Origin: a virus
Lineage: Duplodnaviria; Heunggongvirae; Uroviricota; Caudoviricetes
Virus record (IMG/VR): IMGVR_UViG_2531839477_000015
Coordinates: 1 to 18,808 of that record
DNA length: 18,808 bases
Direction: 5' to 3' (one strand)
The notes beneath the pieces are model-generated. The model saw only the letters and a program-made list of their open reading frames with translations. It ran no database searches and was not told the DNA's origin. The translations under genes and the position numbers were made by a program. This document shows, piece after piece, positions 1,285-17,861 of the stretch. The number at the start of each line of letters is the position of its first letter. Within the stretch, counting starts at the first letter, position 1.

Positions 1285-1330
1285 AGGTTGCTCCGGGCTA
1301 TGAAATAGAAAAATGAATCCGTTGAAGCCT

Positions 1331-1345
1331 GCTTTTTTATACTAA
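1331..1345. other. attL common core GCTTTTTTATACTAA
   Basis: Exact 15-bp lambda att core; left flank TTGAAGCCTGC matches the attB B arm, right flank GTTGGCATTATAAAAAAGCATTGCTTATCAATTTG matches the attP P' arm. Confidence 0.95.
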
Positions 1346-1418
1346 GTTGGCATTATAAAAAAGCATTGCTTATCAATTTGTTGCAACGAACAGGTCACTA
1401 TCAGTCAAAATAAAATCA
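1346..1418. promoter_or_regulatory. attL P' arm with Int arm-type binding sites
   Basis: Lambda P' arm sequence with tandem arm-type motifs CAGGTCACTAT / CAGTCAAAAT / AAAATCATTAT immediately before the int stop codon. Confidence 0.8.
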
Positions 1419-2489
1419 TTATTTGATTTCAATTTTGTCCCACTCCCTGCCTCTGTCATCACGATACTGTGATGCCATGGTGTCCGACTTATGCCCGAGA
1501 AGATGTTGAGCAAACTTATCGCTTATCTGCTTCTCATAGAGTCTTGCAGACAAACTGCGCAACTCGTGAAAGGTAGGCGGATCCCCTTCGAAGGAAAGAC
1601 CTGATGCTTTTCGTGCGCGCATAAAATACCTTGATACTGTGCCGGATGAAAGCGGTTCGCGACGAGTAGATGCAATTATGGTTTCTCCGCCAAGAATCTC
1701 TTTGCATTTATCAAGTGTTTCCTTCATTGATATTCCGAGAGCATCAACATGCAATGCTGTTGGGATGGCAATTTTTACGCCTGTTTTGCTTTGCTCGACA
1801 TAAAGATATCCATCTACGATATCAGACCACTTCATTTCGCATAAATCACCAACTCGTTGCCCGGTAACAACAGCCAGTTCCATTGCAAGTCTGAGCCAAC
1901 ATGGTGATGATTCTGCTGCTTGATAAATTTTCAGGTATTCGTCAGCCGTAAGTCTTGATCTCCTTACCTCTGATTTTGCTGCGCGAGTGGCAGCGACAGG
2001 GTTTGTTGTTATATGGCCTTCAGCTATTGCCTCTCGGAATGCATCGCTCAGTGTTGATCTGATTAACTTGGCTGACGCCGCCTTGCCCTCGTCTATGTAT
2101 CCATTGAGCATTGCCGCAATTTCTTTTGTGGTGATGTCTTCAAGTGGAGCATCAGGCAGACCCCTCCTTATTGCTTTAATTTTGCTCATGTAATTTATGA
2201 GTGTCTTCTGCTTGATTCCTCTGCTGGCCAGGATTTTTTCGTAGCGATCAAGCCATGAATGTAACGTAACGGAATTATCACTGTTGATTCTCGCTGTCAG
2301 AGGCTTGTGTTTGTGTCCTGAAAATAACTCAATGTTGGCCTGTATGGCTTCAGTGATTGCGATTCGCCTGTCTCTGCCTAATCCAAACTCTTTACCCGTC
2401 CTTGGGTCCCTGTAGCAGTAATATCCATTGTTTCTTATATAAAGGTTAGGGGGTAAATCCCGGCGCTCATGACTTCGCCTTCTTCCCAT
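1419..2489 (-). CDS. int: Lambda-type integrase (tyrosine recombinase)
   Basis: 356-aa ORF MGRRRSHERRDLPPNLYIRNNGYYCYRDPRTGKEFGLG...DKIEIK, recognised as lambda Int; adjacent to attL; 23-nt overlap with xis as in lambda. Confidence 0.97.
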   Translation of the reverse strand: MGRRRSHERRDLPPNLYIRNNGYYCYRDPRTGKEFGLGRDRRIAITEAIQANIELFSGHKHKPLTARINSDNSVTLHSWLDRYEKILASRGIKQKTLINYMSKIKAIRRGLPDAPLEDITTKEIAAMLNGYIDEGKAASAKLIRSTLSDAFREAIAEGHITTNPVAATRAAKSEVRRSRLTADEYLKIYQAAESSPCWLRLAMELAVVTGQRVGDLCEMKWSDIVDGYLYVEQSKTGVKIAIPTALHVDALGISMKETLDKCKEILGGETIIASTRREPLSSGTVSRYFMRARKASGLSFEGDPPTFHELRSLSARLYEKQISDKFAQHLLGHKSDTMASQYRDDRGREWDKIEIK

Positions 2490-2685
2490 TTCTGATCCTC
2501 TTCAAAAGGCTACCTGTTACTGGTCGATTTAAGTCAACCTTTACCGCTGATTCGTGGAACAGATACTCTCTTCCATCCTTAACCGGAGGAGGGAATATCC
2601 TGCACTCGCGTACCCATCGACGAACTGTTTCAAGGCTTCTTGGGCGTCGCTGGCGTGCGTTCCACTCCTGAAGTGTCAAGTACAT
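2467..2685 (-). CDS. xis: Excisionase
   Basis: 72-aa ORF MYLTLQEWNARQRRPRSLETVRRWVRECRIFPPPVKDGREYLFHESAVKV..., recognised as lambda Xis. Confidence 0.95.
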   Translation of the reverse strand: MYLTLQEWNARQRRPRSLETVRRWVRECRIFPPPVKDGREYLFHESAVKVDLNRPVTGSLLKRIRNGKKAKS

Positions 2686-2708
2686 CGCAAAGTCTCCGCA
2701 ATTACACG

Positions 2709-2733
2709 CAAGAAAAAACCGCCATCAGGCGGC
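2709..2733 (-). terminator. Intrinsic terminator on the minus strand, upstream of xis
   Basis: Minus-strand RNA AAGCCGCC-UGAU-GGCGG followed by UUUUUU (plus coordinates: stem 2719-2723/2728-2732, A-run 2712-2717). Confidence 0.5.
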
Positions 2734-2798
2734 TTGGTGTTCTTTCAGTTCTTCAATTCGAATATTGGTTACATTGTTTTCATATATGAATAAATAAA

Positions 2799-2978
2799 TT
2801 AGCTTTTTTCGTTGCCTTCGCGTTCTTTATTAATTTTGACAAAATCGTTTTTACCACGCTCTCCAAATGCGTCTTTAGAGTCGTTGTATCCGCAATCGCA
2901 GCACACATAATCATCAGACCATCCACGCATTGTTTTTTCTTTTGCAATATTTCCAGAACCGCATTTTGGACAAGACAT
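2799..2978 (-). CDS. Small zinc-ribbon protein (hypothetical)
   Basis: ATG at 2976-2978 preceded by GGAGG 7 nt upstream (the track's longer ORF begins at a TTG); two Cys pairs CPKCG...CCDCG; 59 aa. Confidence 0.55.
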   Translation of the reverse strand: MSCPKCGSGNIAKEKTMRGWSDDYVCCDCGYNDSKDAFGERGKNDFVKINKEREGNEKS

Positions 2979-3074
2979 ATCACTACCTCCAAAGCATGAG
3001 TGAGATGACAACGTAACATTGATTGGAGATTAACAATAGATTGCTGATGTAAAAGATATGTATAAGCTTCGCTT

Positions 3075-3707
3075 TCAAAGTGGAGGCTCTGGTAGCGGCA
3101 TCCAGTGTGACGGCTCACATACCCCCTCAACACCATTCATGTAAAAGAATTGAAATAACCCTTTACCTTTGTGAAACCCTACCATCTGCTCTTTTGTGTC
3201 TGAGCAATAAACCAAAACATCTTCTTCGCTTGGCATTCGCTCACTACAGCTTATCCAACCATCCGGAGTTACCGGAGAGTTGCCGGGTTCTTTAATGTGC
3301 AAGCGAGGCTCACCATCTTTTGGCTCAGGCCACTGGCGCTCCATGATAATCTTCAATTTATCTTCCATAGCAACGGTAATTTCAGCATCGCTGATGCCAG
3401 CACGGCGCTGTGCATCCCACAACAGAAACTGCATATCAGCCCACTCGCTAAGATCGTCTGGTTCGGCTGCGGCTTCCAGTGCCTCTTTTGAGAGATGTTT
3501 CAGCGGAACAATGGGGCCAACGCAGCCAAATGTGGAGTCAGACCATTTGGCATACTCGTGGCGAATCTGTTCGCGTTCCAGTGATGCCAGCGCAATTCGT
3601 GCCAGTTCTTCCGCTTCTTCTGCTGGCAGTACAACGTTGCTACCAGGTCCGTATGTTTCGCGCCACTGCTTGATTGTCAGTAGTCGCTCTTTGGTCATAG
3701 TGGTCAT
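3075..3707 (-). CDS. DUF551-like phage protein (hypothetical)
   Basis: Start trimmed to ATG 3705-3707 (MTTMTKERLL...) with AAGGAG upstream; C-terminus WISCSERMPSEEDVLVY...HWMPLPEPP resembles the DUF551 signature. Confidence 0.65.
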   Translation of the reverse strand: MTTMTKERLLTIKQWRETYGPGSNVVLPAEEAEELARIALASLEREQIRHEYAKWSDSTFGCVGPIVPLKHLSKEALEAAAEPDDLSEWADMQFLLWDAQRRAGISDAEITVAMEDKLKIIMERQWPEPKDGEPRLHIKEPGNSPVTPDGWISCSERMPSEEDVLVYCSDTKEQMVGFHKGKGLFQFFYMNGVEGVCEPSHWMPLPEPPL

Positions 3708-3708
3708 A

Positions 3709-4230
3709 TCACTCTCCTTTGATGCGAATGCCTGTTGCAATGCTGTTTATGATGCTGTCAGTGCATGGGGTAGAAAGCTGGGCATCTCCAGCAATTTTCA
3801 TGACCTCAACATCTGCATATCGAATACCGAGGTGTATCAGACCGGCTATGCCTGACTTAAGCCGAGCATTTTCCATAAATAGAACCTTTGCCCGCTGTTT
3901 TTCTGCTTCAAGCTCAACTCTCAGCTTCCCTACCGTTAGCGCAATCTCCTCGTTCTCCTGGTCGCGAGATTTGATGTATTGCTGGTTTCTTTCCCGTTCA
4001 TCCAGCAGCGCCTGCACTACTTCAGGGTTGAAAGCTGCGATATAACGAGCGTTGTTCTCTGCGTTGTTCTGTCCATCAAAGCCGGTCCATTTGATAACGT
4101 CTTCACATCGTTTATCACCAGGTGTATGCACCGCATATGTACCAGTACCAGACGAAATAAATGCGACCCATTCACCCTGTGTTGCCAGTTGCGCCGCCTC
4201 ACGCAGTGCCTGATAGTCAATCTTGCTCAC
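3709..4230 (-). CDS. Ead/Ea22-like protein
   Basis: GTG start at 4228-4230 with AAGGAGG 6 nt upstream; N-terminus SKIDYQALREAAQLATQGEW typical of Ead/Ea22-like prophage proteins; coiled-coil middle. Confidence 0.65.
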   Translation of the reverse strand: MSKIDYQALREAAQLATQGEWVAFISSGTGTYAVHTPGDKRCEDVIKWTGFDGQNNAENNARYIAAFNPEVVQALLDERERNQQYIKSRDQENEEIALTVGKLRVELEAEKQRAKVLFMENARLKSGIAGLIHLGIRYADVEVMKIAGDAQLSTPCTDSIINSIATGIRIKGE

Positions 4231-4522
4231 TGGTTGCCTCCTTTGCTGGGCTTTCGAATGTATCAAACTCAAACAACTTAACTACGTCATCAAACAGGAC
4301 ATAATCGCCATCAGAATCTTCAGTCATGTCAGCGCCACAATCCTGACCGAACGAGTCACAACCATCCATATCAAGCTCGTATCGCTTGAGTTTTGCGATA
4401 TTTGATAAATTCAGCGCCAGTACAGCAAGGTCATAAACCTCATCAGCGGTATACCCGGCACCATGCCCATACATTTCAATACGGGATATGATTTCTTCTA
4501 CACGTTGTTTTGTGATCGTCAT
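4217..4522 (-). CDS. Hypothetical acidic protein (101 aa)
   Basis: ATG at 4520-4522 with AGGAAGGTGAG upstream; co-oriented and tightly packed within the pL operon. Confidence 0.55.
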   Translation of the reverse strand: MTITKQRVEEIISRIEMYGHGAGYTADEVYDLAVLALNLSNIAKLKRYELDMDGCDSFGQDCGADMTEDSDGDYVLFDDVVKLFEFDTFESPAKEATSEQD

Positions 4523-4980
4523 TTTTGCTCACCTTCCTGTTCTTCCAGAAAAATACGCATAGCCTCAAGCATCTCTTCGGTGTCATACGGAGACAGCTTG
4601 TCACGCAGGATGTGTTCAATGCTGTTAATGAACTTGCGGATTGCTTTGCGTTCAATTTCAGCCAGGAAAGCGTCGGTGGCTTGGGTTTCAGTAACATCAT
4701 CTTCCCATTCGCTAAACTCCTCACGACAAAAGTCATTAAATTCCTTCTCAGATTGCTTAAGCGAGGTATTTTCAGCAGCCATCTTCGCGCATTTAGCCTC
4801 AAGGTTATCAATCGTGATTCCAGCAGAACGACACTCCCGCAACGCCGTTTCCAGTTTTGATTCAAGTTCGCCGAACTTACGGACAAGATATTCAGCGTTT
4901 GTTTCGTTAACCTTTAAATCACTTGGGATGCATTTACCTTTCAGAAAACCATCCATCTCAATTAGTGTCATTTGTTTCAT
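4519..4980 (-). CDS. Hypothetical coiled-coil protein (153 aa)
   Basis: ATG at 4978-4980; stop overlaps the next start; charged, helix-prone sequence. Confidence 0.55.
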
Positions 4981-5141
4981 TTCTTCCCACTCCGCAACAT
5001 CGCATTCAGATATTTGTTGTCGTTAACAGAACCGAAACTCTTTCTTTTAAGCAATTCCTCTCTCGATGGCATTGGCTTTACGCGTTGGCGAATAATCATT
5101 TCTGCCGGAAGAATGCCGGGATTGTATGCAAGTCCTCTCAT
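4979..5141 (-). CDS. Small ORF (53 aa), translationally coupled
   Basis: Not in the >=60-aa track. ATG 5139-5141 overlaps the upstream stop (ATGA) and its own stop overlaps the next ATG; translation [54 protein letters not shown]. Confidence 0.35.
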
Positions 5142-5428
5142 GATTTACTCTCCACGAACTGGTCAATAGCCATGCTAAGTGACATACCTAAAGCTTCGAT
5201 ATGCTGCTGAATATCCTGTAGCGTCCGCGCCTGAGATAACAGAATTTCACGGTTGCATAACTCTTTAACCAGATGCTCAAACTTGCTGTAATAACCGATA
5301 CGGCTTAGTGTTTCTTTCCCTGCATTCTCGCCTTCTTTGATAATTCCTCTTTCGCTAAGAATCAGATCGTGTTTGGTTCCGGTAATAACGTATTTTCCGA
5401 GGTCGATGTTTAGCTTCATTGTTTTCAT
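5138..5428 (-). CDS. Hypothetical protein (96 aa)
   Basis: Start trimmed to ATG 5426-5428 ([14 protein letters not shown]...) with GAGGAA 8 nt upstream; the track's longer ORF would overlap the upstream gene. Confidence 0.55.
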
Positions 5429-5438
5429 TGTTAATTCC

Positions 5439-5732
5439 TCAGTCATTACTGATAGCGCCATAGCGTGAGCGGTAATTACGCAGGCGCGGGTCAATTTCAG
5501 GGAAGTGGGTATATGTGGCTTTGCGGAATGGTCGGATTGATGTCTGGTAAATTCGCTCGCGTTCTTTTTTCTCTGCAAGCCATATACAGTGGCGAAATTC
5601 CTTTTCATCTTTCGTTTCCTGCGGTAGAGACATTATCCGATCGTAGTTTTTTCTGAATTTATCCAGCACCTCCGATACGGAATTGCCGGAACAGCGGCGC
5701 GCGTCGTCCGCACCATACAGAGGCGCTGGCAT
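5439..5732 (-). CDS. Hypothetical protein (97 aa)
   Basis: ATG 5730-5732 with GGAG 6 nt upstream. Confidence 0.55.
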   Translation of the reverse strand: MPAPLYGADDARRCSGNSVSEVLDKFRKNYDRIMSLPQETKDEKEFRHCIWLAEKKERERIYQTSIRPFRKATYTHFPEIDPRLRNYRSRYGAISND

Positions 5733-5745
5733 GATTTTCTCCTGA

Positions 5746-6225
5746 TTAAATTGCGTGAATAGCGTGACGAGGGAATGGGAGAGTTACTGGTTCCTCGTCT
5801 GGGTAGATAGGTTTGTTATGTTTGTGCCACTCGACATGACATGACTTGCAGAGCCACATCACATCGGTTGGTTTGCTGTAGTCGCAGTGGTGCGCCTGTG
5901 GTTTACATTCTGATCCGCAGCACTCACATTGTGGTGGTCGGATTAGCTTACCGTCGCGCAAAAAATTACCCACAATGATGTGGGCTTTTCTTTTCCATGG
6001 GTTGCTCTGAATGAACCGCTTTTTGGCTGCGTTACACCGTTCTCTTCCGCGTTCCGATGATTGATATTCTCTCCTTGCTGATACTCGATGTGGCAATCCA
6101 GCGCGTTCTTTGTCGTATTCAGCCAGGCAAGCCCGGCAAGCGGCAGTTAATCCATCTCTGGATGCTCTTCTGATTTGAAAGTCCCTTTCTTCCTTCTGTT
6201 GATGGCATCTTGAGCAGACTTTCAT
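5746..6225 (-). CDS. HNH-family endonuclease with extra Cys pairs
   Basis: C-terminal CECCGSECKPQAHHCDYSKPTDVMWLCKSCHVEWH fits the HNH/zinc-finger pattern; ATG 6223-6225 with GGAG upstream. Confidence 0.6.
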   Translation of the reverse strand: MKVCSRCHQQKEERDFQIRRASRDGLTAACRACLAEYDKERAGLPHRVSARREYQSSERGRERCNAAKKRFIQSNPWKRKAHIIVGNFLRDGKLIRPPQCECCGSECKPQAHHCDYSKPTDVMWLCKSCHVEWHKHNKPIYPDEEPVTLPFPRHAIHAI

Positions 6226-6234
6226 ATTCAGCTC

Positions 6235-6708
6235 CTAGAACGGAATATCCGAATCGTCAAAATCCATAGGTGGTTCGCTGTGATTCCCCTGCTGCTGAGA
6301 TTGCTGTCTTTGTTGCTGACCGTTATTTCGCTGAGGTGAAGACTGTTCATTGCCTCCTTGCTTGCCACCAAGCATTTTCATGGTTCCACCAACGCCCACG
6401 ATGACTTCGGTAGTGAACCTATCCTGTCCGCTTTGATCCTGCCATTTTCTTGTCCGTAATTTGCCTTCAAGATAAACCTCTGAGCCTTTTCGCAGATATT
6501 CGCTGGCAATTTCTGCCAGTTTCCCGCTCATTACCACGCGGTGCCACTCCGTCTGCTCCTTTTGCTCTCCAGTTTGCTTATCACGCCATTGTTCTGACGT
6601 AGCAACTGTAAGGTTTGCAAATGCCGTTCCTGATGGTGAATATCTGATTTCTGGATCATGCCCAAGGCGACCAATAATGATCACCTTATTTACGCCTCTA
6701 CTTCCCAT
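6235..6708 (-). CDS. ssb: Single-stranded DNA-binding protein
   Basis: N-terminus [23 protein letters not shown]...TEWHRVV, Gln/Gly-rich linker and C-terminal [12 protein letters not shown] tail, matching SSB. Confidence 0.93.
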
Positions 6709-7416
6709 TTATGCCGCCTGTTTTAGTTCGTTAACTCTGATGTTCATTACCTGAACGCATTTAGCCTGCGCCTCCTCGTTGCCAGCCATTAATTGCCAGT
6801 CACGCTGATAACGCTCGATGAGTTTTTTCTTGTCAGTTTCTGTTGATGCATAATCGCTGAAGTCTTTCAGGATTTGTTCGCAGTCAACCGATGGAGATTT
6901 CTGGTTGGTATTTTCTGGTGATGGTTTGTTATCTGATGCTGGGATTGCCCATCCCGGCAGCGATGGAGGGAGCCAGTAAAATCCTGTTCCATCCTTGAGT
7001 TTTGCCCTGTGCCATCCCTGCTTTTTATCGAGAGATGTTTGTGCGAAACCTTCCTCAAGGTTATACAGATACCGACCGATTCCCCACTGAACGGCAGCGC
7101 GCTTCATTGCACCGGAACGACCACCTTTGACGGCTTCTACCTGCGTGTTTTCAGCAGCATCCCATTTGGTTACCCATTCGGAATCAATCTTGATTGATAT
7201 GCCGCATTCAACTCCGCCGTTGTTGGGAATATCGCGGTATTCATTGCGCCATCCTGCTTTGCCGCAAACATCGTCCAGGCGTTTCATGATTGCCCTGTTC
7301 GTGACATAAGCCAGCACCATAGCCCACACCTTTCCATCGCGTGTTTTACCGCTTTGCTGTATTCGCCATTCGATATCTTCAGGGCTGAATGGCTCATCGA
7401 ATTTGTTCAAATCCAT
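6709..7416 (-). CDS. Rad52/22-type single-strand annealing protein (recombinase)
   Basis: Motifs NRAIMKRLDDVCGKAGW and GGRSGAMKRAAVQWGIGRYLY match the Rad52-family signature; sits directly upstream of ssb. Confidence 0.75.
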   Translation of the reverse strand: MDLNKFDEPFSPEDIEWRIQQSGKTRDGKVWAMVLAYVTNRAIMKRLDDVCGKAGWRNEYRDIPNNGGVECGISIKIDSEWVTKWDAAENTQVEAVKGGRSGAMKRAAVQWGIGRYLYNLEEGFAQTSLDKKQGWHRAKLKDGTGFYWLPPSLPGWAIPASDNKPSPENTNQKSPSVDCEQILKDFSDYASTETDKKKLIERYQRDWQLMAGNEEAQAKCVQVMNIRVNELKQAA

Positions 7417-7424
7417 AATTCACC

Positions 7425-7595
7425 TCAGAATGGACACGGCCCAAGGAAATAACGCTGATTTAATACTTCGACTCGTGACAAATTAAGGCATACCCGCATT
7501 CCTTCGCGGTCGCCATTATGGCGATACCAGAGAGCTTTCTGCGTGTACATGCGTCTCTGTAACTTGCTCTCCTTCACTGTGGTTGCAAGTGACAT
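7425..7595 (-). CDS. Small ORF (56 aa), alternative reading of the region
   Basis: ATG 7593-7595 with AAGGAG upstream; overlaps the 7516-7672 ORF in another frame, so at most one of the two is likely real. Confidence 0.2.
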   Translation of the reverse strand: MSLATTVKESKLQRRMYTQKALWYRHNGDREGMRVCLNLSRVEVLNQRYFLGPCPF

Positions 7596-7672
7596 GAATA
7601 TCTCCTTCGTTACCGATTAAATCTTTCATCTGACGAATGAATTCTTCGTCTGACCAGTTATCTGTAAAACTC
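7516..7672 (-). CDS. Small ORF (52 aa), coupled to the kil-like ORF
   Basis: ATG 7672-7674 overlaps the stop of the upstream ORF (ATGA); weak Shine-Dalgarno. Confidence 0.3.
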
Positions 7673-7823
7673 ATTTCCTGCGATACCACGGAAGGTTGAT
7701 AGCTGATTTCATCGCTTTATTTGCTTCAAGCCACATTTTTGAATCACCAATAAATCTGGCTATTACTGCTTTGTTTTGTGCAGCACGAAGCACCTGGTGA
7801 TTGATGGCTATTTCATTGCGCAT
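7671..7823 (-). CDS. kil: Kil-like small protein (putative FtsZ/cell-division inhibitor)
   Basis: 50-aa ORF; segment IARFIGDSKMWLEANKAM resembles the FIGDEKM core I recall from lambda Kil; lies between cIII-like and the recombination genes as in lambda; GGAGG upstream. Confidence 0.4.
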   Translation of the reverse strand: MRNEIAINHQVLRAAQNKAVIARFIGDSKMWLEANKAMKSAINLPWYRRK

Positions 7824-7942
7824 AACGCCTCCAGTTGTTTCTTTGCTGCTCTGATTAATTGTTTAACTCGGCGTGATAATTCAGATTCGTGCGGGTAGAA
7901 AGCGGACATGACGCCGCTACCCGCGAACTGAAAGTGCATCAT
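7808..7942 (-). CDS. cIII: CIII-like protein (putative FtsH inhibitor / CII stabiliser)
   Basis: 44-aa ORF MMHFQFAGSGVMSAFYPHESELSRRVKQLIRAAKKQLEALCAMK; pattern M-x-[FY]-x-[IF]-AG ... ESxLxRRxxxLxR resembles lambda CIII; GAAGGAG 6 nt upstream. Confidence 0.5.
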   Translation of the reverse strand: MMHFQFAGSGVMSAFYPHESELSRRVKQLIRAAKKQLEALCAMK

Positions 7943-8017
7943 GGGTAACTCCTTCTGTTTGATTGCATAACGAAAACGCCTCGAGTGAAGCGTTATTGGT
8001 ATGCGGTAAAGCCGCGC

Positions 8018-8329
8018 TTAGGCGGCTGATGTTTCTTCTTTCAGGCTTTCGAGATATTTACGTGGGTCGTCGTAACATTGGCATTCGCTATACCAATCCA
8101 CCCAGCGATCAGTAAGCCCCATATCTGATAAATCTTCATCGGTAAGGCTCTCATCCCACATCTCAAGGCCGTTAGCATTGCAGTAATCAGGCTTGATGTT
8201 GTTGTCATACTGAAAGGCGTCATAATCAGCCAGTGCGTCCATCAGGCGAACACCCTCTTCAACACTTGCCACTTCTACAATGAACGGCTTCATAGGTACT
8301 TGCGGGATATGCCAGACACGTAATTTCAT
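8018..8329 (-). CDS. Hypothetical acidic protein (103 aa)
   Basis: Start trimmed to ATG 8327-8329 (MKLRVWHIPQ...) with GGAGGA upstream. Confidence 0.55.
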   Translation of the reverse strand: MKLRVWHIPQVPMKPFIVEVASVEEGVRLMDALADYDAFQYDNNIKPDYCNANGLEMWDESLTDEDLSDMGLTDRWVDWYSECQCYDDPRKYLESLKEETSAA

Positions 8330-8341
8330 ATATCCTCCGTC

Positions 8342-8370
8342 AAAAAAATTGCCCTCACATTGGAGGGCAA
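8342..8370 (-). terminator. Intrinsic terminator (tL-type) on the minus strand
   Basis: Minus-strand RNA UUGCCCUC-CAAUGU-GAGGGCAA followed by UUUUUUU; stem 8351-8356/8363-8368, U-run from plus A-run 8342-8348. Confidence 0.6.
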
Positions 8371-8430
8371 AGAAGATTTCCAATAATCAGAACAAGTCGG
8401 CTCCTGTTTAGTTACGAGCGACATTGCTCC

Positions 8431-8458
8431 GTGTATTCACTCGTTGGAATGAATACAC
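8431..8458. repeat. Inverted repeat (9-bp arms GTGTATTCA/TGAATACAC, 10-nt spacer)
   Basis: Perfect 9-bp inverted repeat directly 3' of the 156-aa gene stop; no U-tract follows. Confidence 0.5.
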
Positions 8459-8472
8459 AGTGCTTATTCGTA

Positions 8473-8943
8473 CTAATAAAACACCCAGTTTTCTGTTTCT
8501 TGGTTGTGTCCAAAGTTATATTCAATATCTGGTGTTGATGTATCAATATTCTTAATCCCATCAACAAGAGTTGATACAACAGCCAAATCTTGTTTGATTC
8601 TCATCAAATGGTATTTCTTCCGGCGCAATAAACTTTCAATGGCAAGTTTCTTCGTCGGGAACGCAAAAGATCTTTCTGCATTTTTTGCTACTTTCTTAAT
8701 TGCATATCTATTTCTCCTTTGTTTCCATTCCTGTAACCACTGATTTGGTGCTGGTTTAAAATTAACAATCCAATGCGCAGGAACCAACCATGCATAATGC
8801 TCTGTCTGATGAAAAGCTATATATTGAAGTGCGCATATTTTTATCCCATCTTCTTCAACTGTCGCCTGGAATCTCCAGAAAACAGGCATTCCATCATGTT
8901 CAGTTTCTGATTCAGGAAAAGGTACGCTCCATGATTTTGTCAT
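8473..8943 (-). CDS. Hypothetical protein (156 aa), N-proximal moron
   Basis: ATG 8941-8943 with GAGGTGA upstream; no motif recognised; a 60-nt sample (8701-8760) counts 37% GC versus 55% in a 60-nt int sample (1441-1500). Confidence 0.6.
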   Translation of the reverse strand: MTKSWSVPFPESETEHDGMPVFWRFQATVEEDGIKICALQYIAFHQTEHYAWLVPAHWIVNFKPAPNQWLQEWKQRRNRYAIKKVAKNAERSFAFPTKKLAIESLLRRKKYHLMRIKQDLAVVSTLVDGIKNIDTSTPDIEYNFGHNQETENWVFY

Positions 8944-8997
8944 ATCTCACCTCAAATAAGTGGTTTGCTGCGAAAATAAATCCGCTTAAGTTACCTG

Positions 8998-9135
8998 TTA
9001 TTTATCCCACCAAGTTCCGGATCTATCTATCCAGTTACACCAATCATCGACACTCCATTTTGTTGTGTCGCATTTTGGCAACTGGCATGAATATCTACCT
9101 TCTTTGTAAAGTCGGCGTTTGACTTTCTTGAGCAT
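8998..9135 (-). CDS. Small Cys-containing ORF (45 aa)
   Basis: Not in the track. ATG 9133-9135 with GAGGTGA upstream; translation MLKKVKRRLYKEGRYSCQLPKCDTTKWSVDDWCNWIDRSGTWWDK. Confidence 0.3.
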   Translation of the reverse strand: MLKKVKRRLYKEGRYSCQLPKCDTTKWSVDDWCNWIDRSGTWWDK

Positions 9136-9143
9136 GGCTCACC

Positions 9144-9449
9144 TCAATCGTAATAAGCTGGAATTGATTTTCCGCGTTGCTTCTGGCGGCCTGAACAAGT
9201 CACACCCATTTCACTGCGTGGCTTGCGGTAGTAAATACGGTTCTGTTTACGCTCGACTTCTTCTGCCTTCTTGCAGCGAAGGCTTCCGAGTGATGCTGCT
9301 TTATCTGCTCTGACGCAACCAGAGAGCTTTAGCGCAATTTTTCGTGCCAGTCGCTGCTCTTGCATTGCCTGTTCACGTTGATCCTGTCTGCGTGCTCTGC
9401 GGCGATTTCTGGCGTTATCGTCAGCCAGATATGTAATGACTACTGTCAT
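9144..9449 (-). CDS. N: Antitermination protein N
   Basis: N-terminal arginine-rich motif NARNRRRARRQDQREQ and C-terminus KPRSEMGVTCSGRQKQRGKSIP matching lambda N (...KPGERGITCSGRQKIKGKSIP); GGAGG 5 nt upstream; nutL lies in its leader. Confidence 0.85.
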   Translation of the reverse strand: MTVVITYLADDNARNRRRARRQDQREQAMQEQRLARKIALKLSGCVRADKAASLGSLRCKKAEEVERKQNRIYYRKPRSEMGVTCSGRQKQRGKSIPAYYD

Positions 9450-9557
9450 GTTGACCTCCGATGATTGACTTTGGCGGTGACGCGCCGGGTGCTTATCTTC
9501 CGGTTGCCGTCGTGCAGCTGCACTTCACGTCACCCCAAAACCAACTACTCTTTGGTT

Positions 9558-9598
9558 CCCGCATTTCGGCGGGACAATCCCATCAATGTTAAAGAGCC
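9558..9598 (-). promoter_or_regulatory. nutL (boxA GCTCTTTAACA + boxB hairpin CCCGC-CGAAAT-GCGGG)
   Basis: Read on the minus strand: boxA at plus 9587-9597 and boxB at plus 9558-9573; the boxB 16-mer is identical to the one downstream of cro. Confidence 0.7.
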
Positions 9599-9644
9599 TG
9601 CCAATATGTTCCGTTTGGCTACCAAACGTCCTGCTGATGGCTAA

Positions 9645-9673
9645 AGAATACTGTAGGTATTTTATTGTGTAAA
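9645..9673 (-). promoter_or_regulatory. pL promoter (putative)
   Basis: On the minus strand: -35 TTTACA (plus 9668-9673), 17-bp spacer, -10 TATTCT (plus 9645-9650); overlaps the two operator palindromes. Confidence 0.5.
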
Positions 9674-9731
9674 TACCCAAGGTATTTATTTTTGATGAAA
9701 TAATGATAAGCAAATGAATACAAAGGATATT
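9646..9731. promoter_or_regulatory. OL operators (2 clear + 1 degenerate site)
   Basis: AATAC-N5-GTATT at 9647-9661 and 9672-9686 (the latter a perfect 17-bp palindrome AAATACC-CAA-GGTATTT); weaker AATAC-N5-ATATT at 9717-9731. Confidence 0.6.
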
Positions 9732-9817
9732 TATTTTTTCGGTGTCTGCTTGTTCAGTGCTTTTTATGCGGGATATGTGAAGTGGATCCCGATAGCTATT
9801 GCTGCCGGGATTATAGG

Positions 9818-10186
9818 TTAGTCAGCGAAGGTTAAGACGAGAATTACCTTAATGATATCTGCTACAACAGACACGGCCATAGATAAACCAAAGACAATCC
9901 AAGCCATATAGATGTCTTCACTACCATCGTATAGAGTTCCGTAATCACTGGTGTAAGGCGTAAATGTCGCGCCTTGATACAACAGGTATAAGCTTGAACC
10001 ATAGAGGATAAATGCAGATATCCCTTGTATTGCTATGATCACTAGAATCATGAAACGAGCTGATCTATGCGCCCAAGCCTGGCTTATTTTTTCTGATAGA
10101 GATTTCGCAATAAAAGCATGCGCTAAGCCGTAAATTGTCGAGATTGCCAACATCCCAAAAAAGCTTGCTATAGCGGTTCCAACCAT
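9818..10186 (-). CDS. Small polytopic membrane protein in the rex position (downstream of cI)
   Basis: Start trimmed to ATG 10184-10186 (MVGTAIASFFGML...) with AAGGGG upstream (the track start is TTG); three or four hydrophobic helices; no recognised family. Confidence 0.65.
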   Translation of the reverse strand: MVGTAIASFFGMLAISTIYGLAHAFIAKSLSEKISQAWAHRSARFMILVIIAIQGISAFILYGSSLYLLYQGATFTPYTSDYGTLYDGSEDIYMAWIVFGLSMAVSVVADIIKVILVLTFAD

Positions 10187-10203
10187 AATCGCCCCTTGCG
10201 TGA

Positions 10204-10920
10204 TCAAACCAGCCTTAGTTTTGTCTCAATTGCAACGCCTATAATCTTGCAGTTTCCATTGATTGGCACGAGAGGCCATGCAGGATTAAGTCCCTTGAGG
10301 TATTTATTTCCGCCGTCGATTATCAGCTTCTTGAATGTTGCTTCGTTAGAGTCAGAAAGTTTTGCTATGACCAAGCTGCCGTTGATCGCCTCCCTTCCGG
10401 TATCGAAAAGAACGAATGTTCCCTCTGGAATGCTTAACCCAACCGGTGCCGTCATTGAATCACCTTCCACTTTAAGCCAGAACGCATTACCTTGAATATG
10501 CGCGTCAGACTCAAGCCAAACATCTATGTCTTTAATGGTGTATGGTTCGCATGCTTCACACCACGAGCCAGCCTGGATACTGCTTAACACCGGATACCTC
10601 TTTCCTGCTCTGTATTCCCCTGCATACCTTACGTTGGCATCGCTCTTAAGGCTTTCTGCCTGTTCTGCAACCTTGGCAGCAATTGACTGGCTAAAATCAG
10701 CAATTGAGACTTGCAACAGTCGTGCAAAACCAGATGCAACCTCAACGTTTAGCGCGTTTCTGCCATTAAGATAATGCCCTACCGCTCCTTGGGTGATACC
10801 CAGTTCATCCGCGATTGAGTATTGGGTTATCCCCAATTCTTTCTTTTTTGACTCATACAAAGCCTTAAGCCGCTTAGCGTCTTCGAGCTGTTCTGTCGTC
10901 AGTGATTTTTTATTTTCCAT
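10204..10920 (-). CDS. cI: CI-type prophage repressor (HTH + LexA/S24-like autocleavage domain)
   Basis: N-terminus LTTEQLEDAKRLKALYESKKKELGITQYSIADELGITQGAVGHY parallels lambda CI; C-terminal domain with conserved Ser/Lys context (WLKVEGDSMTAP ... TFKKLI); divergent from cro across the operators. Confidence 0.93.
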   Translation of the reverse strand: MENKKSLTTEQLEDAKRLKALYESKKKELGITQYSIADELGITQGAVGHYLNGRNALNVEVASGFARLLQVSIADFSQSIAAKVAEQAESLKSDANVRYAGEYRAGKRYPVLSSIQAGSWCEACEPYTIKDIDVWLESDAHIQGNAFWLKVEGDSMTAPVGLSIPEGTFVLFDTGREAINGSLVIAKLSDSNEATFKKLIIDGGNKYLKGLNPAWPLVPINGNCKIIGVAIETKLRLV

Positions 10921-10931
10921 AGCTTAATTCT

Positions 10932-10996
10932 AATAGCTAAGGTACTTAAACTAAAAATACCCTGAGTATTGATTGCTTTGAATACCTGTAGTATTC
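10932..10996. promoter_or_regulatory. OR operators (OR3-OR2-OR1) with divergent pRM and pR
   Basis: AATAC-N5-GTATT at 10956-10970 and 10981-10995, degenerate AATAG-N5-GTACT at 10932-10946; centre spacing 24-25 bp; possible leaderless pRM with -10 TAGAAT (plus 10927-10932) about 7 nt before the cI ATG. Confidence 0.6.
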
Positions 10997-10997
10997 T
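10969..10997 (+). promoter_or_regulatory. pR promoter (putative)
   Basis: -35 TTGATT (10969-10974), 17-bp spacer, -10 TATTCT (10992-10997), the same -10 hexamer as pL; overlaps OR1/OR2. Confidence 0.55.
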
Positions 10998-11026
10998 TTG
11001 TTCATGGTTAATAACGGAGAGTGCAT

Positions 11027-11221
11027 ATGATTCGAATGACACTTGCCGATTACGCCAAAATCCATGGACAGGCTAAAGCAGCCAGTGACTTTGGTGTAAT
11101 CCAGTGCGCTATCAGCAAGGCCATTCTGGCAGGCCGTAACATTATGGTTACGGTAAAGCCTGATGGCAGTGTGATTGGAGAGGAGGTTCGTCCTTTCCCA
11201 AGCAACAAGAAAAACAAATAG
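11027..11221 (+). CDS. cro: Cro repressor
   Basis: [33 protein letters not shown]...[13 protein letters not shown] parallels lambda Cro (…YQSAINKAI…EEVKPFPSNKK); ATG 11027 with ACGGAGAG upstream. Confidence 0.85.
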
Positions 11222-11227
11222 TAACAC

Positions 11228-11270
11228 CGCTCTTTAACAGTCATGGTCCTCATTCCCGCCGAAATGCGGG
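11228..11270 (+). promoter_or_regulatory. nutR (boxA CGCTCTTTAACA + boxB CCCGC-CGAAAT-GCGGG)
   Basis: boxA 11228-11239 matches the boxA consensus; boxB hairpin 11255-11270; located 7 nt after the cro stop. Confidence 0.75.
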
Positions 11271-11329
11271 AATACAACGCGCATCAGTTGGTGCGCATAA
11301 CTTCTTATTTGTTAAGGAAATACTTACAT

Positions 11330-11608
11330 ATGCAACTTACAAGTACTCGCAAGAAAGCGAATGCAATTACAAGCAACATCCTAAATCGAATTGCTGTACG
11401 TGGTCAGCGAAAGGTTGCTGATGCATTAGGGATCAATGAATCACAAATTTCGCGATGGAAAGACAGCTTTATCCCAAAGATGGCCATGCTTCTGGCTGTT
11501 CTTGAATGGGGAGTTGTTGATGATGAGATGGCGAGACTTGCTCAGCAGGTGGCATCGATTCTCACAAAAGAAAAACGCCCAGCTGTTGGTAGCAGTCTGG
11601 ACGCTTAA
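11330..11608 (+). CDS. cII: CII transcriptional activator
   Basis: Start trimmed to ATG 11330 (upstream AAGGAAATACTTACATATG matches the lambda cII initiation region as recalled); ...SQISRWKDSFIPKMAMLLAVLEWGVVDDEMARLAQQVASILT parallels lambda CII. Confidence 0.9.
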   Translation: MQLTSTRKKANAITSNILNRIAVRGQRKVADALGINESQISRWKDSFIPKMAMLLAVLEWGVVDDEMARLAQQVASILTKEKRPAVGSSLDA

Positions 11609-11668
11609 GCACACTGTGTTACGCCAAGTAACAGGAGTAATTATGCCAGGACAAACCAAGCAAGTAAA
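11567..11668 (-). ncRNA. OOP-like antisense RNA (putative)
   Basis: Minus-strand hairpin CGUCCAG...CUGGGCG + UUUUUCUUUU inside the cII 3' end (plus about 11570-11600), analogous to the lambda oop terminator; possible promoter -35 TTGTCA (plus 11687-11692) and -10 TTTACT (plus 11663-11668). Confidence 0.3.
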
Positions 11669-12047
11669 CACCGGCATAAAGGCCGGTGACAAGTTCGAAA
11701 CCGTATATCCATTTATCTTCGTATGCACAGATTATCAGTCTTATGACGGCAACGTGCATACCGATGAGCGCTGGATTGGCGGTTGTCACAAAAATTATGA
11801 GCCAGCCGATTGTGGTTATGGTGATCAGTGTTTTTACACCGCTGATGCTGAAGGAAAGAGAATTCTTGAGGTTCTGGCAGTGGTGGAAATGCCAGGCAAC
11901 TGGCAGCGCAGAATCATTTATTCGTGCCACCTCATAGAGCCTGAAGGCAAGGAGAGGAAAGGAAGGAAGGCTTACACAGTCACCGAATCAAGGTTTTTAA
12001 AAATGTCTACTGGTTACTTCGCTGATTACGAAGTAGAGGAGGCTTAA
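11643..12047 (+). CDS. Hypothetical Cys-rich protein (134 aa) inserted between cII and O
   Basis: ATG 11643 with AGGAG 5 nt upstream (the track ORF is over-extended into cII); Cys/His-rich segment [40 protein letters not shown]; no family recognised. Confidence 0.6.
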
Positions 12048-12193
12048 TGACAAAACCACTCAGTCCTTACCAGGACAAAATTCACAAACACATACTACGT
12101 GATCGCTTCCTGTCCAGCTTCAAGCAGCCTGGTCGATTCCGGGCTGAGTTGGAAAAAGTGAAGCTGATGCAGAAGGAGAAAGGTCATGAGTAA
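12047..12193 (+). CDS. Small ORF (48 aa), translationally coupled
   Basis: Not in the track. ATG 12047 overlaps the upstream stop (TAATG) with GAGGAGG 5 nt upstream; translation [48 protein letters not shown]; 3' end overlaps the O-like start. Confidence 0.4.
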
Positions 12194-13046
12194 TCTTGCA
12201 ACCGTAACACATTTAAGGCCTTCACAACGGCCTGTGGAGCGTCGTGTGGCAGAAGTTGAAGATGGTTATACCCGTCTTGCAAATGCCCTGTATGAAGAGC
12301 TTATCGGCGCAGATTTAACGAAAAATCAGAGCAAGGTTGCCCACGCCATATGCCGTAAAACATACGGCTACGGTAAAAAGATGGATCGCATCTCTGATAG
12401 TCAGTTAGCTCAAATTACCAGGCTGCCAAGACAGAAGGTAAACAAGGCCAAGAATGAGCTTATCGCGATGAAGGTTATCCTTCGCGAAGGCCAGCAAATC
12501 GGGCCTAACAAGAACATCGAGGAATGGCAAATAGAAGGGTGTCACTACTCTGGTGATAATGTCACTGCATTGGTGACAAAAAGTGTCACCAAAACGGTGA
12601 CAGCGCTGTCACCAAAACAGGGACACACAAAAGAAACTATTACAAAAGAAAAAAGAAATAATAAAAACACTATGTCCGAAAGTGTTCGGACGGAGTGTGA
12701 AAAATCACATGACCGTCACGAAGAAACCGACAAGGCATTCGAGGAAATATTCTGGTGTGCAGGCATGCGGAAAGCCGGGAAGAAAAACGCAGCTTCGGCA
12801 TTCAGAACACAGTTCAGGGAATGGCGTAAAACTACCAGGGGTACGGCAAGCGAGTTTGCCACGATGCTGGCAGAAGACATCGCATGCAGGAATGGTAAGC
12901 AGTTCGGATTCGACAGGTTGTTACCATCGAGCTACCTGAACGGTCAACGCTGGAACGACGAGAAGCCAGAAACTATTCAACCACAATCCAAACCATCATC
13001 CGCAATCACCGTATCGAAAACTGGCTACGTGTTTTTCGACAGGTGA
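12186..13046 (+). CDS. Replication initiator, lambda O-like N-terminal domain with unrelated C-terminal domain
   Basis: N-terminal region [58 protein letters not shown]...GPNKNIEEW parallels lambda O; iterons inside the gene; C-terminal half not O-like. Confidence 0.85.
12551..12672. repeat. Putative ori: iteron cluster plus AT-rich tract inside the O-like gene
   Basis: Six alternating copies of GGTGACA/TGTCACC-type heptamers between 12551 and 12622 (tggtgataa, tgtcactgc, ttggtgacaaaaa, gtgtcaccaaaac, ggtgacagcgc, tgtcaccaaaac), followed by the A-rich tract 12628-12672. Confidence 0.6.
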
Positions 13047-13153
13047 ACCATGAAATCAAAAATCAAATCGCTACTGGTCGCTGGTTATAACCACGGCTGG
13101 TTAAGTATTTCGTTTGTCGATTTCTGGTTTAAAAATCTCAATCTGAGGGAATC

Positions 13154-13648
13154 ATGATGAGCCTTGAAGTTGGAGAATATATACCTGGTTATGAGGGTAA
13201 ATACTCTGTAACCAAAGACGGTCGTGTTTATTCACATTTAAGAGGCAGGTTTTTGAATCCATCTCCGGATAACAAGGGTTATCTAAGAGTCACTTTGTGT
13301 TCCGATGGGATTCAGAAGACGTTAAAAGTTCATCGTCTTGTAGCTCAATTATTTATCCCAAATCCGTATTGCAAGCCAGAAGTAAATCATATCAACGGCG
13401 ACAAATCGGATAACGCCATTTGGAACTTGGAATGGTGTACCTGCTCAGAGAATTTAAAACATGCTTTTAGCATCGGACTGAAAAGCGCAAAGGGAGTTTT
13501 TAATGGTAGGGCAAAACTATCTGAAACTGATGTGATTGATATCAGGAATTCTGTTGGTATGAAACTAAGCGAACTATCCACTAAATACGGAGTGAGTGAA
13601 ATGCAAATTTCCACAATCCGCAGAGGAAACGCATGGAGGCACCTTTGA
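13154..13648 (+). CDS. HNH homing-type endonuclease (NUMOD4-like N-terminus, HNH_3 core, C-terminal HTH)
   Basis: YIPGYEGKYSVTKDGRVYS...HRLVAQLFIPNP...VNHINGDKSDNAIWNLEWCTCSEN; by-eye AT-rich; sits between the O-like gene and the primase-helicase. Confidence 0.8.
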   Translation: MMSLEVGEYIPGYEGKYSVTKDGRVYSHLRGRFLNPSPDNKGYLRVTLCSDGIQKTLKVHRLVAQLFIPNPYCKPEVNHINGDKSDNAIWNLEWCTCSENLKHAFSIGLKSAKGVFNGRAKLSETDVIDIRNSVGMKLSELSTKYGVSEMQISTIRRGNAWRHL

Positions 13649-15525
13649 GTCCATCAGAACTTAGCGACCTGCTTTGGGCGCAGGTTGACAGGGTGGCTCC
13701 GCACCTGTTGCCAAACGGCAAGAAAGAGGGGCATGAGTGGGTTGCCGGTAACGTCAACGGTGACAAGGGAAACAGCCTTAAGGTCAACCTTAGCGGCAAG
13801 AAAAAATGGGCTGATTTCGCCGAGGGAGACGGCGGTGACATGCTTGATTTGTGGATGGCATGTCGTGGAATTAACCTGCATCAGGCTATGCAGGAAGCGA
13901 AAGCATTTCTCGGTATCAAGGATGACGATCACCATTTCGATGCCAAACGTGAGAAGAAATTCTCCAGACCTGATCGCAAGAAAATCGCCCGCTACGTTAC
14001 CAGGACAGAATCCCATCTTGAGTACCTGCAATCGCGTGGCATATCGCCAGAAGTCGTAAAGCGCTACGAGGTTGTCAGCGGCAAGGTGTGGAATGGAGAA
14101 CGAGAACTGGATGCTCTGGTGATTCCGTACAAACGCGATGGTGAGTTGTTGCAGGTCAAGCGAATCAGCACTGAGCGCTCGGACGGGAAGAAAGTCATTA
14201 TGGCAGAAGGTGATTGCGAACCTTGTCTGTTCGGATGGCAGGCTCTGGACGCTGGCGTGAGGGCGGTTGTACTTTGCGAAGGCGAAATTGATTGTATGAG
14301 CTATGCGCAATACGGCATCTCGGCGTTATCCGTGCCGTTTGGTGGCGGGAAAGGCGCTAAGCAACAGTGGATTGAGTTTGAGTATCACAACCTCGACAGG
14401 TTTGAGGAAATATTCATCTCGATGGACGTTGATGATGTTGGTCGTGAAGCCGCAAGGGAAATCGCAAGCCGACTCGGTGAACATCGTTGCCGTCTTGTTA
14501 CTCTGCCGTACAAGGACATCAACGAATGCCTGATGAACGGTGTTACCGAGGATGAAATCTGGCAGTACATCGGCACGGCATCCTACTTCGATCCTGAAGA
14601 ACTCTACAGCGCGCGAGAGTTTTACCAGGACACTATCAACGCTTTCTACGGCAAGCAGCAGTATCTGTTTAATCCACCGTGGGAATCTCTGGCAGATAAA
14701 TTCCAGTTCCGTGAGGCCGAGTTGACGCTGGTCAATGGTGTGAACGGTCACGGAAAAACGGAGGTTGTCGGGCATATGGCACTTGAGGCAATGCGTCAGG
14801 GGGTGAAGACGTGCATCGCGTCACTTGAGCTGAAGCCTGGTATTCTCCTTAAGCGCCTTACCCGTCAGGCAACGTGCTGCAAGATGCCGCCAGTGCTGGA
14901 AATTGACTCTGCATTTAAATTTTATGACGAAAGACTTTGGGTGTTTGGCCTGACCGGAACGGCGAAATCCGACAGGCTGATCGAAATATTCGACTACGCT
15001 CGCCGCCGATACGGGATCCAGTTATTCATCATCGACAGCCTGATGAAATGTGGCATAGGCGACGATGACTATAACGGGCAGAAGGCGTTTGTTGACTCGA
15101 TTTGCGACTTCAAAAACAAAACAAACTCCCACGTCATTCTCGTTACTCACTCGCGAAAAGGAGACAGCGAAGAAAAACCAACCGGGAAAATGGACGTAAA
15201 AGGCTCTGGAGCGATAACAGACCTGACAGACAACCTTTTCATCATCTGGCGTAACAAGGCTCGCGAGAGAGCGTTACAGAGAGTTCAGAGTGGTGAAAAG
15301 ATGTCAGAGAAGGACGAACAGCTACTGGCATCTCCGGCATCTGTTTTGATGCTTGAAAAACAACGTAACGGCGAAGGTTGGGAAGGTGGCGTCCCGTTGT
15401 TCCTTGACGAGCAATCGCACCAGTTCCTGCAACTTGAATCAGGATCGCCATATAGCTACATCGCCAATATGCCGAAATCGGAATATGACGAGGCGTGGCG
15501 ACAGGAAAACGTGACGGAGTATTAA
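13633..15525 (+). CDS. Bifunctional primase-helicase (Toprim primase + DnaB/SF4-like helicase)
   Basis: 630 aa; Toprim-like VVLCEGEIDCMS; Walker A LVNGVNGHGKTEV; Walker B-like LFIIDSLMK; occupies the lambda P position. Confidence 0.85.
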   Translation: MEAPLSPSELSDLLWAQVDRVAPHLLPNGKKEGHEWVAGNVNGDKGNSLKVNLSGKKKWADFAEGDGGDMLDLWMACRGINLHQAMQEAKAFLGIKDDDHHFDAKREKKFSRPDRKKIARYVTRTESHLEYLQSRGISPEVVKRYEVVSGKVWNGERELDALVIPYKRDGELLQVKRISTERSDGKKVIMAEGDCEPCLFGWQALDAGVRAVVLCEGEIDCMSYAQYGISALSVPFGGGKGAKQQWIEFEYHNLDRFEEIFISMDVDDVGREAAREIASRLGEHRCRLVTLPYKDINECLMNGVTEDEIWQYIGTASYFDPEELYSAREFYQDTINAFYGKQQYLFNPPWESLADKFQFREAELTLVNGVNGHGKTEVVGHMALEAMRQGVKTCIASLELKPGILLKRLTRQATCCKMPPVLEIDSAFKFYDERLWVFGLTGTAKSDRLIEIFDYARRRYGIQLFIIDSLMKCGIGDDDYNGQKAFVDSICDFKNKTNSHVILVTHSRKGDSEEKPTGKMDVKGSGAITDLTDNLFIIWRNKARERALQRVQSGEKMSEKDEQLLASPASVLMLEKQRNGEGWEGGVPLFLDEQSHQFLQLESGSPYSYIANMPKSEYDEAWRQENVTEY

Positions 15526-15554
15526 ATGACCATCTACATCACTGAGCTAATAAC

Positions 15555-15586
15555 AGGCCTGCAGGTAATCGCAGGCCTTTTTATTT
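15555..15586 (+). terminator. Intrinsic terminator (tR2-equivalent) after the replication genes
   Basis: Perfect 8-bp stem AGGCCTGC/GCAGGCCT (15555-15562 / 15571-15578), 8-nt loop, then TTTTTATTT. Confidence 0.8.
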
Positions 15587-15602
15587 GGGGGAGAGGGAAG
15601 TC

Positions 15603-17311: not shown

Positions 17312-17313
17312 CA

Positions 17314-17842: not shown

Positions 17843-17861
17843 AAGAGGGGATTATTAAGGC

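Follow-up and report, generated by a model that had tools for sequence, protein, structure and literature searches.

The Ral protein of phage lambda, an early product of the pL operon, alleviates type I restriction. Between ral and ea10 lambda encodes PreS (LPR1), an Hfq-dependent small RNA (sRNA) of ~88 nucleotides (nt) that is processed to ~68 nt and whose 3' end is the pL-operon terminator tL2a (bioRxiv 10.1101/2024.10.31.621285). Lambda makes PreS in the lytic cycle alone, starting 10 min after induction, and PreS activates the translation of dnaN and promotes the replication of lambda DNA (bioRxiv 10.1101/2024.10.31.621285). Silas et al. treat the region that contains ral as a phage accessory region, and they describe the 107-amino-acid (aa) product of orf184 as the trigger of the gop-beta-cII abortive-infection system (bioRxiv 10.1101/2023.04.06.535777). 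Here we examine the corresponding region of a virus of the Caudoviricetes (IMG/VR record IMGVR_UViG_2531839477_000015, positions 1 to 18,808; this whole stretch of 18,808 nt is the window), in which two genes encoding proteins of 156 and 45 aa lie between an N-like antiterminator gene and a counterpart of PreS. Between N and PreS, genes are swapped from phage to phage: this interval is a hotspot, the variable "ral slot" of the lambdoid pL operon, and the 156-aa protein, which belongs to the family of HK97 gp45, is one of its many occupants.

The stretch is read on the minus strand, on which all of the elements described below lie, and coordinates are window positions. The minus strand of this part of the window is a lambdoid immunity and early-left (pL) region, in which the N-like gene (9449..9144) is followed by the 45-aa open reading frame (ORF; 9135..8998), the 156-aa ORF (8943..8473), an inverted repeat (8458..8431) and an intrinsic terminator (8370..8342). 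The initial annotation had already located these five elements correctly, and we hold the architecture of the locus and the identities of its genes, as described here, with high confidence. The broader proposal, that a ral slot with interchangeable early cargo directed at the host best explains the whole, has in our estimate a probability of about 0.55.

The evidence for the slot comes from comparison of loci. A 63-nt core of the PreS block retrieved more than 120 viral contigs, and 128 loci were compared. The last ORF before the block was highly variable, with at least 12 alternative proteins over these loci. Ral was the commonest occupant (51 loci), followed by gp45 (24), a 149-aa membrane protein (phrog_3054; 13), a 207-aa protein with an Nmad5 domain (PF18757, 'nucleotide modification associated domain 5'; 12), a 98-aa protein (phrog_1273; 11), proteins of 62 aa (7), 67 aa (6) and 91 aa (5), an 80-aa DUF7446 protein (5), and proteins of 107, 293 and 65 aa (2 loci each). 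The last 20 residues of the 293-aa protein match a PHROG of Nun-like termination factors (slot occupants L018-L137). Three genes of the accessory region of Silas et al., orf87 (Ral), orf184 and orf47 (a membrane protein), were all recovered as occupants of exactly this slot. The two studies differ in that gp45 and the 45-aa protein are absent from the 200-gene library of Silas et al., whose screen is silent on both.

The relationship between the two commonest occupants was scored at 100 loci with at least 1.5 kb of upstream sequence. Ral was present at 43 of them and gp45 at 18, and no locus carried both, against an expected overlap of 7.7 (hypergeometric 1e-5, a value that overstates independence because the counted loci are related prophages). 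Ral and gp45 were each found with ea10/ssb, cIII or gp17 downstream. As cargo of a single slot with sharp borders, the two proteins are mutually exclusive.

On its left the slot is bounded by a conserved 5' linker, GCAGCAAACCACTTATTTGAGGTGAGATATG (8941..8971), which contains a Shine-Dalgarno (SD) sequence and the start codon. This linker precedes gp45 in five phages, including 933W, HK97, H-19B and 611R6, and precedes the lambda-type orf28-ral pair in phage phi458. It is nearly identical among these phages, with one mismatch within the stretch, in phi458. The right boundary is the PreS block, and the matches of the window to 933W and HK97 span positions 8971 to 8343, stopping exactly at the end of the T-run of the terminator. 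Lambda Ral, with orf28, resembles the gp45 of the window in occupying the same slot, behind the same 5' SD linker and in front of the same 3' PreS/tL2a block, and is expressed early from pL, as is predicted for gp45; it differs in being a Cys-rich protein of 66 aa, whereas gp45 is a basic protein of 156 aa with another predicted architecture. The initial annotation had likened this neighborhood to that of lambda ral. The likeness extends beyond analogy to homology, since on the 3' side the sequence matches the lambda sequence behind ral at 98.3% identity and the shared 5' linker precedes orf28-ral.

The hairpin and the terminator, which had been entered as anonymous features, turned out to be parts of the lambdoid backbone: a conserved hairpin, the PreS/LPR1 sRNA and tL2a of lambda. 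Positions 8343..8463 (121 nt) are 98.3% identical to lambda 33925-34045, with a GC-rich hairpin and U-tail in both, and the lambda counterpart lies after the stop of ral (34087) and before the start of ea10 (33904). There are two substitutions with respect to lambda, both in or beside the terminator stem-loop. The terminator (8342..8370) has a stem (8370..8349) of 8 bp, including 5 GC pairs, followed by a run of seven T. With a 124-nt block as the only query, matches of 96-99% identity were recovered in 327 phage records, lambda, 434, 21, HK022, HK75 and HK97 among them; the block is labelled 'terminator' in the records of HK97, 21, 434, HK75 and mEp234, and the HK97 record marks a 'putative terminator' after gene 45. 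In an alignment of seven phages the sequence from the inverted repeat through the terminator was essentially invariant, despite a different gene upstream (phi458) or downstream (gp17, ssb/ea10 or cIII), and the single-stranded body of PreS was invariant in all seven copies and identical to that of lambda. The whole interval of 138 nt also folded far better than shuffled controls (z = -4.8). Judged by its sequence, the copy in the window is an orthologue of PreS/LPR1 with tL2a, at the position it has in the pL operon of lambda and with gp45 instead of ral as the gene upstream.

The putative sRNA would extend over 8343..8430, its 5' end being estimated from the published length of ~88 nt. Counting 88 nt back from the U-tail sets this end at ~8430, so that the inverted repeat adjoins PreS. 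The repeat itself is a perfect 9-bp match, GTGTATTCA (8458..8450) with TGAATACAC (8439..8431), which grows to 12 pairs in RNAfold. The hairpin is identical among the aligned lambdoid phages and lambda, whatever the gene upstream, and may separate the upstream mRNA from PreS as a boundary of processing or stability. Rfam returned no PreS match and nothing real, whether the whole window was searched at the gathering threshold or positions 8200-9800 at an E-value threshold. Two other candidates were rejected here. The anti-sRNAs AgvB and AsxR sit at the PR' moron site and not at this locus. A 32-aa ORF, MSLVTKQEPTCSDYWKSSLPSNVRAIFLTEDI (8424..8326), lies inside PreS and the terminator, but its SD sequence is just 2 nt from its ATG and it reads through the terminator; on these grounds it was judged spurious and is probably not translated. 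In phage vB_EcoP-611R6 (~2460-2540 of its locus, L003) the hairpin and PreS body are kept, and another GC-rich hairpin (GCCGC...GGGCGGC) stands at the site of the tL2a stem. In that phage the function of the terminator appears to have been kept while its sequence was replaced.

The 156-aa protein matches phrog_1636 over residues 1-156 of 156 (E 1.1e-110) and is 98.1% identical to HK97 gp45 and 98.7% identical to 933W L0079; an unannotated ORF of H-19B is ~98% identical. HK97, 933W and H-19B resemble the window in this 98% identity over 156 residues and in having gp45 directly upstream of the same hairpin-terminator block in the pL operon, but in these three phages gp45 comes directly after N, whereas a DUF5484 ORF (the 45-aa ORF) intervenes here. 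The gene downstream of the block is cIII in HK97, ssb/ea10 in 933W, and gp17 in H-19B as in the window. The gp45 gene was found in 83 phage records and in 598 of 5426 complete Escherichia coli genomes (11%). At 56-84% identity, homologues that cover the full length were found in, among others, Pectobacterium, Brenneria, Cronobacter and Rosenbergiella, and HMMER, run exhaustively over cluster representatives, added homologues of ~135-155 aa at 23-31% identity. These distant homologues belong to phrog_13631 and phrog_25384, both without assigned function. They are not followed by PreS, and their neighbors include no conserved partner, sharing just a general early-operon position. Two representatives, P0042 and P0057, were discarded as low-complexity repeats.

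The initial annotation had seen no recognizable motif in either protein, which holds for the 156-aa protein, for which no known domain family was found, and fails for the 45-aa ORF, which belongs to DUF5484. Searches of Pfam, NCBIfam, PADLOC and the sequences of the PDB with the single gp45 sequence and two profiles gave nothing consistent; 17 Pfam families were rejected, each having been matched by just 1 of 32 members at E >0.008. Ral was no closer, with no match of gp45 to PF11058 in Pfam and an hhalign probability of 0.1% for the gp45 family profile against Ral. AlphaFold, which had been proposed as a check on the 156-aa protein, gave with AlphaFold2 a predicted local distance difference test (pLDDT) score of 94.6 in all five models, for which no solved structural relative was found. 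The model predicts a beta-sheet packed against a long helix, in a probably cytoplasmic protein. Foldseek searches of BFVD recovered 12 fold relatives at E <1e-3, every one labelled 'uncharacterized', in temperate and virulent phages of Erwinia, Achromobacter, Delftia, Rhizobium, Sinorhizobium, Tenacibaculum and Cellulophaga. Homologues and fold relatives of gp45 are found in the early regions of temperate phages, and also in virulent phages, namely phiEa2809, phiAxp-3, RG-2014 and phages of Cellulophaga and Rhizobium. We found no functional study of L0079 or of HK97 gp45 in the literature.

The 45-aa ORF matches DUF5484 (PF17583, E 1.2e-12; phrog_1871) with 47.7 bits against a gathering cut-off of 27, and is 53% identical to T4 gp55.4 over 40 residues (BLASTP, E 7e-16). 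The two proteins are alike in length (45 and 43 aa) and share the core DTTKWSV-DW...ID..G.W. They differ in that T4 gp55.4 has Thr, Gly and Ile at the positions of the three Cys (C17, C22 and C33) of the prophage protein, and in that the T4 gene lies among the small genes 55.1-55.8, between nrdH and gene 55 and near nrdG, and not after an antiterminator. The three Cys had been pointed out in the ORF; with none of them in T4 gp55.4, they are not a metal site that defines the family. DUF5484 was found with tblastn in 928 phage records, of which ~10 come from lambdoid phages, with identities of at least 90%; the remaining 918 are below 60% identity and are nearly all from T-even-like myoviruses, including T4, T2 and T6. 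The literature yielded no functional study of DUF5484 or gp55.4.

The SD sequence of the 45-aa ORF sits within the final codons of N, which makes it probable that the two are translationally coupled. DUF5484 lies immediately 3' of N at nine of ten lambdoid loci, with ~480 nt between N and the ORF at the tenth (L123), and it follows at least two types of N. At these ten loci it was accompanied by Ral in five and by gp45 in four, and stood alone in one, and most copies of gp45 are without it, HK97, 933W and H-19B among them. The two ORFs are accordingly not the pair that they had been taken for: DUF5484 is a separate, independently mobile mini-cassette. In phi458 (L015, 3001-3442) the order is N, DUF5484, lambda-type orf28, a 59-aa Ral shortened at its C terminus, and PreS; DUF5484, which pairs there with Ral too, is unannotated in the phi458 record.

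Could one or both ORFs be non-functional, as chance ORFs or decaying remnants of a mosaic junction? Both are annotated merely as 'hypothetical', and annotation of the 45-aa ORF is often missing, as in phi458 and E. coli EC190329. Such an origin is nevertheless extremely improbable, given full-length homologues of gp45 down to ~25% identity, 40 invariant columns in the close gp45 set, the score of 94.6 in all five structural models, the occurrence of DUF5484 in hundreds of records including T4, T2 and T6 with a score above the Pfam cut-off, and a strong SD sequence before both ORFs. Conservation effectively refutes it, and by the same sequence comparisons the 156-aa and 45-aa ORFs are genuine, conserved phage genes. 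The good SD sequences that the initial annotation had credited to both ORFs proved to be parts of one and the same unit, a 15-nt direct repeat at 8941-8955 and 9133-9147 (13/15 identical; TTGAGGTGAG(A/C)(T/C)ATG) that supplies the strong SD sequence and start codon of both accessory genes. This repeat may be a junction sequence for cassette insertion.

The properties of gp45 also bear on the possibility that gp45, DUF5484 or both are intrinsic to the phage, as regulators or nucleic-acid-binding factors in its transcription, RNA processing, replication or recombination, for instance by binding the pL transcript or PreS or by modulating RNA polymerase. The gp45 protein is basic (isoelectric point 8.95), with a strongly conserved patch of Arg and Lys (R79, K84, K87, R91, R107, K109 and R115), and its gene lies between N and PreS and upstream of recombination genes, as do its distant homologues. 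Set against this are the dispensability of gp45, most lambdoid phages with the same backbone carrying Ral or another gene, the lack of linkage of its distant homologues to PreS, and the failure of Pfam and profile searches to detect a helix-turn-helix or other known DNA- or RNA-binding family in it. We consider an intrinsic role unlikely.

The two genes had been described as an immediate-early moron. In the definition of Juhala et al. (2000), a moron has a deviating GC content, its own promoter and its own terminator (PMC3594210). The base composition agrees with this label: the 37% GC that had been counted in a 60-nt sample of the 156-aa gene is close to the value for the whole gene (36.9%), which is ~9 points lower than that of the window (46.1%), and DUF5484 has 40.6% against 49.7% for N. 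The promoter does not. No sigma-70-like site was detected on the minus strand between 9645 and 8473 in a consensus scan, which weak or non-sigma-70 promoters could escape. Neither is the terminator a part of the cargo, lying as it does in the backbone block of 327 phage records, with Ral, gp45 and at least 10 other genes upstream. With no promoter of their own detected and a terminator that belongs to the backbone, the two genes lose the strict moron label; they are cargo of a hotspot, probably driven from pL.

These same features weigh on a related explanation, in which the repressed prophage itself would express the genes, as true morons or as lysogenic-conversion genes, and they would keep other phages out of the lysogen in the manner of lambda sieB or HK97 gp15. 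The low GC content suggests horizontal acquisition, a terminator follows the gene, lambda sieB is found in the same neighborhood, and the gene next door is a member of the P22 gp17 family, annotated as superinfection exclusion. However, neither ORF is preceded by a sigma-70 promoter-like site, the terminator is tL2a/PreS of the backbone, and the lambda transcripts of this interval are confined to the lytic cycle (bioRxiv 10.1101/2024.10.31.621285). Neither protein matches a PADLOC defence family, and fold relatives of gp45 are found in virulent phages, where there is no lysogen to shield. An exclusion function of this kind is consequently improbable, more so than a regulatory one.

The signals that would drive the cargo lie upstream. 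A pL-like sigma-70 promoter (TTTACA-17-TATTCT; 9645..9673), downstream of a cI-like repressor gene (10920..10204), is the only promoter-like site that the consensus scan found on the minus strand in 7800-10000. Operator-like palindromes read by eye, AAATACCTTGGGTATTT (9687..9671) and AAATACCTACAGTATT (9662..9647), overlap it. A nutL-like site (9557..9597), also recognized by eye, consists of a boxA-like sequence, GCTCTTTAAC (9597..9588), and a boxB-like hairpin (9574..9557); its placement between pL and N is the same as the annotated order in phage 21. The N-like protein has 101 aa and matches phrog_271 (E 7.7e-36), while its score against Pfam N_peptide (18.8 bits) is under the Pfam cut-off. 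The terminator at 8370..8342 is the sole terminator-like site on the minus strand from pL to the next gene, in a scan of intrinsic sites beyond which Rho-dependent sites lie. For intrinsic terminators, this agrees with the earlier placing of both ORFs upstream of the first terminator of the pL transcript.

By analogy with lambda and the PreS study, RNA polymerase starting at pL upon infection or induction would transcribe N, DUF5484 and gp45 and, without N, would stop at tL2a. A single immediate-early transcript would then yield N, both accessory proteins and, from its 3' end, PreS, so that both proteins and PreS would be made immediately and in lytic development only. We propose that gp45 acts as an early, dispensable factor directed at the host, binding a host macromolecule. 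Being basic, it is an unlikely DNA mimic of the Ocr or ArdA type and more probably binds nucleic acid or an acidic partner. It would fill the role that Ral has in lambda by a different mechanism, and DUF5484, which T-even phages share, would be another such small factor. The interchange with Ral, the contacts of other occupants with immunity and the relatives in virulent phages speak for a part in lytic growth rather than in protecting the lysogen. That gp45 is an early counter-defence or host-takeover factor is nonetheless a tentative assignment, to which we give somewhat less than even odds. The more specific version, in which gp45 represents a new class of early phage inhibitors of the host immune system that binds through a basic surface and DUF5484 is a second mobile host-directed micro-protein, is doubtful, though less so than the intrinsic role considered above.

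Several observations weigh against interchangeable early host-directed cargo as the explanation of the locus, in addition to the relatedness of the counted loci. Position, and only position, assigns gp45 and DUF5484 to counter-defence. Besides Ral almost no slot occupant has an assigned function, and orf184 is known solely as a trigger of abortive infection. The gp45 protein is without similarity to Ral or to any anti-restriction family of PADLOC or Pfam, and as a basic protein it is unlike the DNA mimics Ocr and ArdA. Finally, independence from N presupposes that no Rho-dependent terminator lies between pL and tL2a.

The genes on either side of the locus complete the picture. The first gene past the terminator (8018..8329) is of the gp17 family and is annotated as P22 superinfection-exclusion gp17 (PF17420, E 5e-56; phrog_1510). 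It is part of the next mosaic module, and its position is taken in other phages by ea10/ssb or cIII, and in H-19B, as here, by gp17. Note that the mechanical ORF list starts gp17 at a TTG at 8383, through the terminator; from the ATG at 8329 the protein has 103 aa and matches PF17420 positions 1-98. UDP0144 in the library of Silas et al. is a gp17 homologue. Where lambda has rexAB, immediately behind cI, lies a 129-aa multi-transmembrane ORF (10207..9818) without match in PADLOC or NCBIfam, which is a candidate for a prophage-expressed exclusion gene. Searches of PADLOC-DB at E up to 1 returned no family for gp45, DUF5484, gp17 or this rex-position ORF.

Part of this picture is already known. 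The gp45 gene has been in GenBank since the records of H-19B, 933W and HK97 were deposited, and the terminator and the sRNA have been published. The mutual exclusion of gp45 and Ral in one slot, PreS as the right boundary of that slot, the homology of the small ORF to T4 gp55.4, and a confidently predicted architecture of gp45 without solved or annotated relative are new. Nothing at the locus is mechanistically surprising yet, but it would be cheap and attractive to study by experiment. The gp45 gene is carried by the medically important Shiga toxin (Stx)-converting phages (933W, H-19B and many other Stx1 and Stx2 phages) and by the model phage HK97, and has been 'hypothetical' for 25 years. 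The identity of the terminator as PreS/tL2a matters for the design of deletions, as PreS, an sRNA that promotes phage DNA replication, would be lost along with "gene 45 plus its terminator".

Overall, the homologue of T4 gp55.4 in lambdoid phages reveals gene flow between virulent T-even and temperate lambdoid phages. The sharp boundaries of the slot, the exclusion of Ral and gp45, and the contacts of Ral and orf184 with immunity together provide a short, testable list of candidates for counter-defence or host takeover, and they make the slot a good place to seek new counter-defence proteins.

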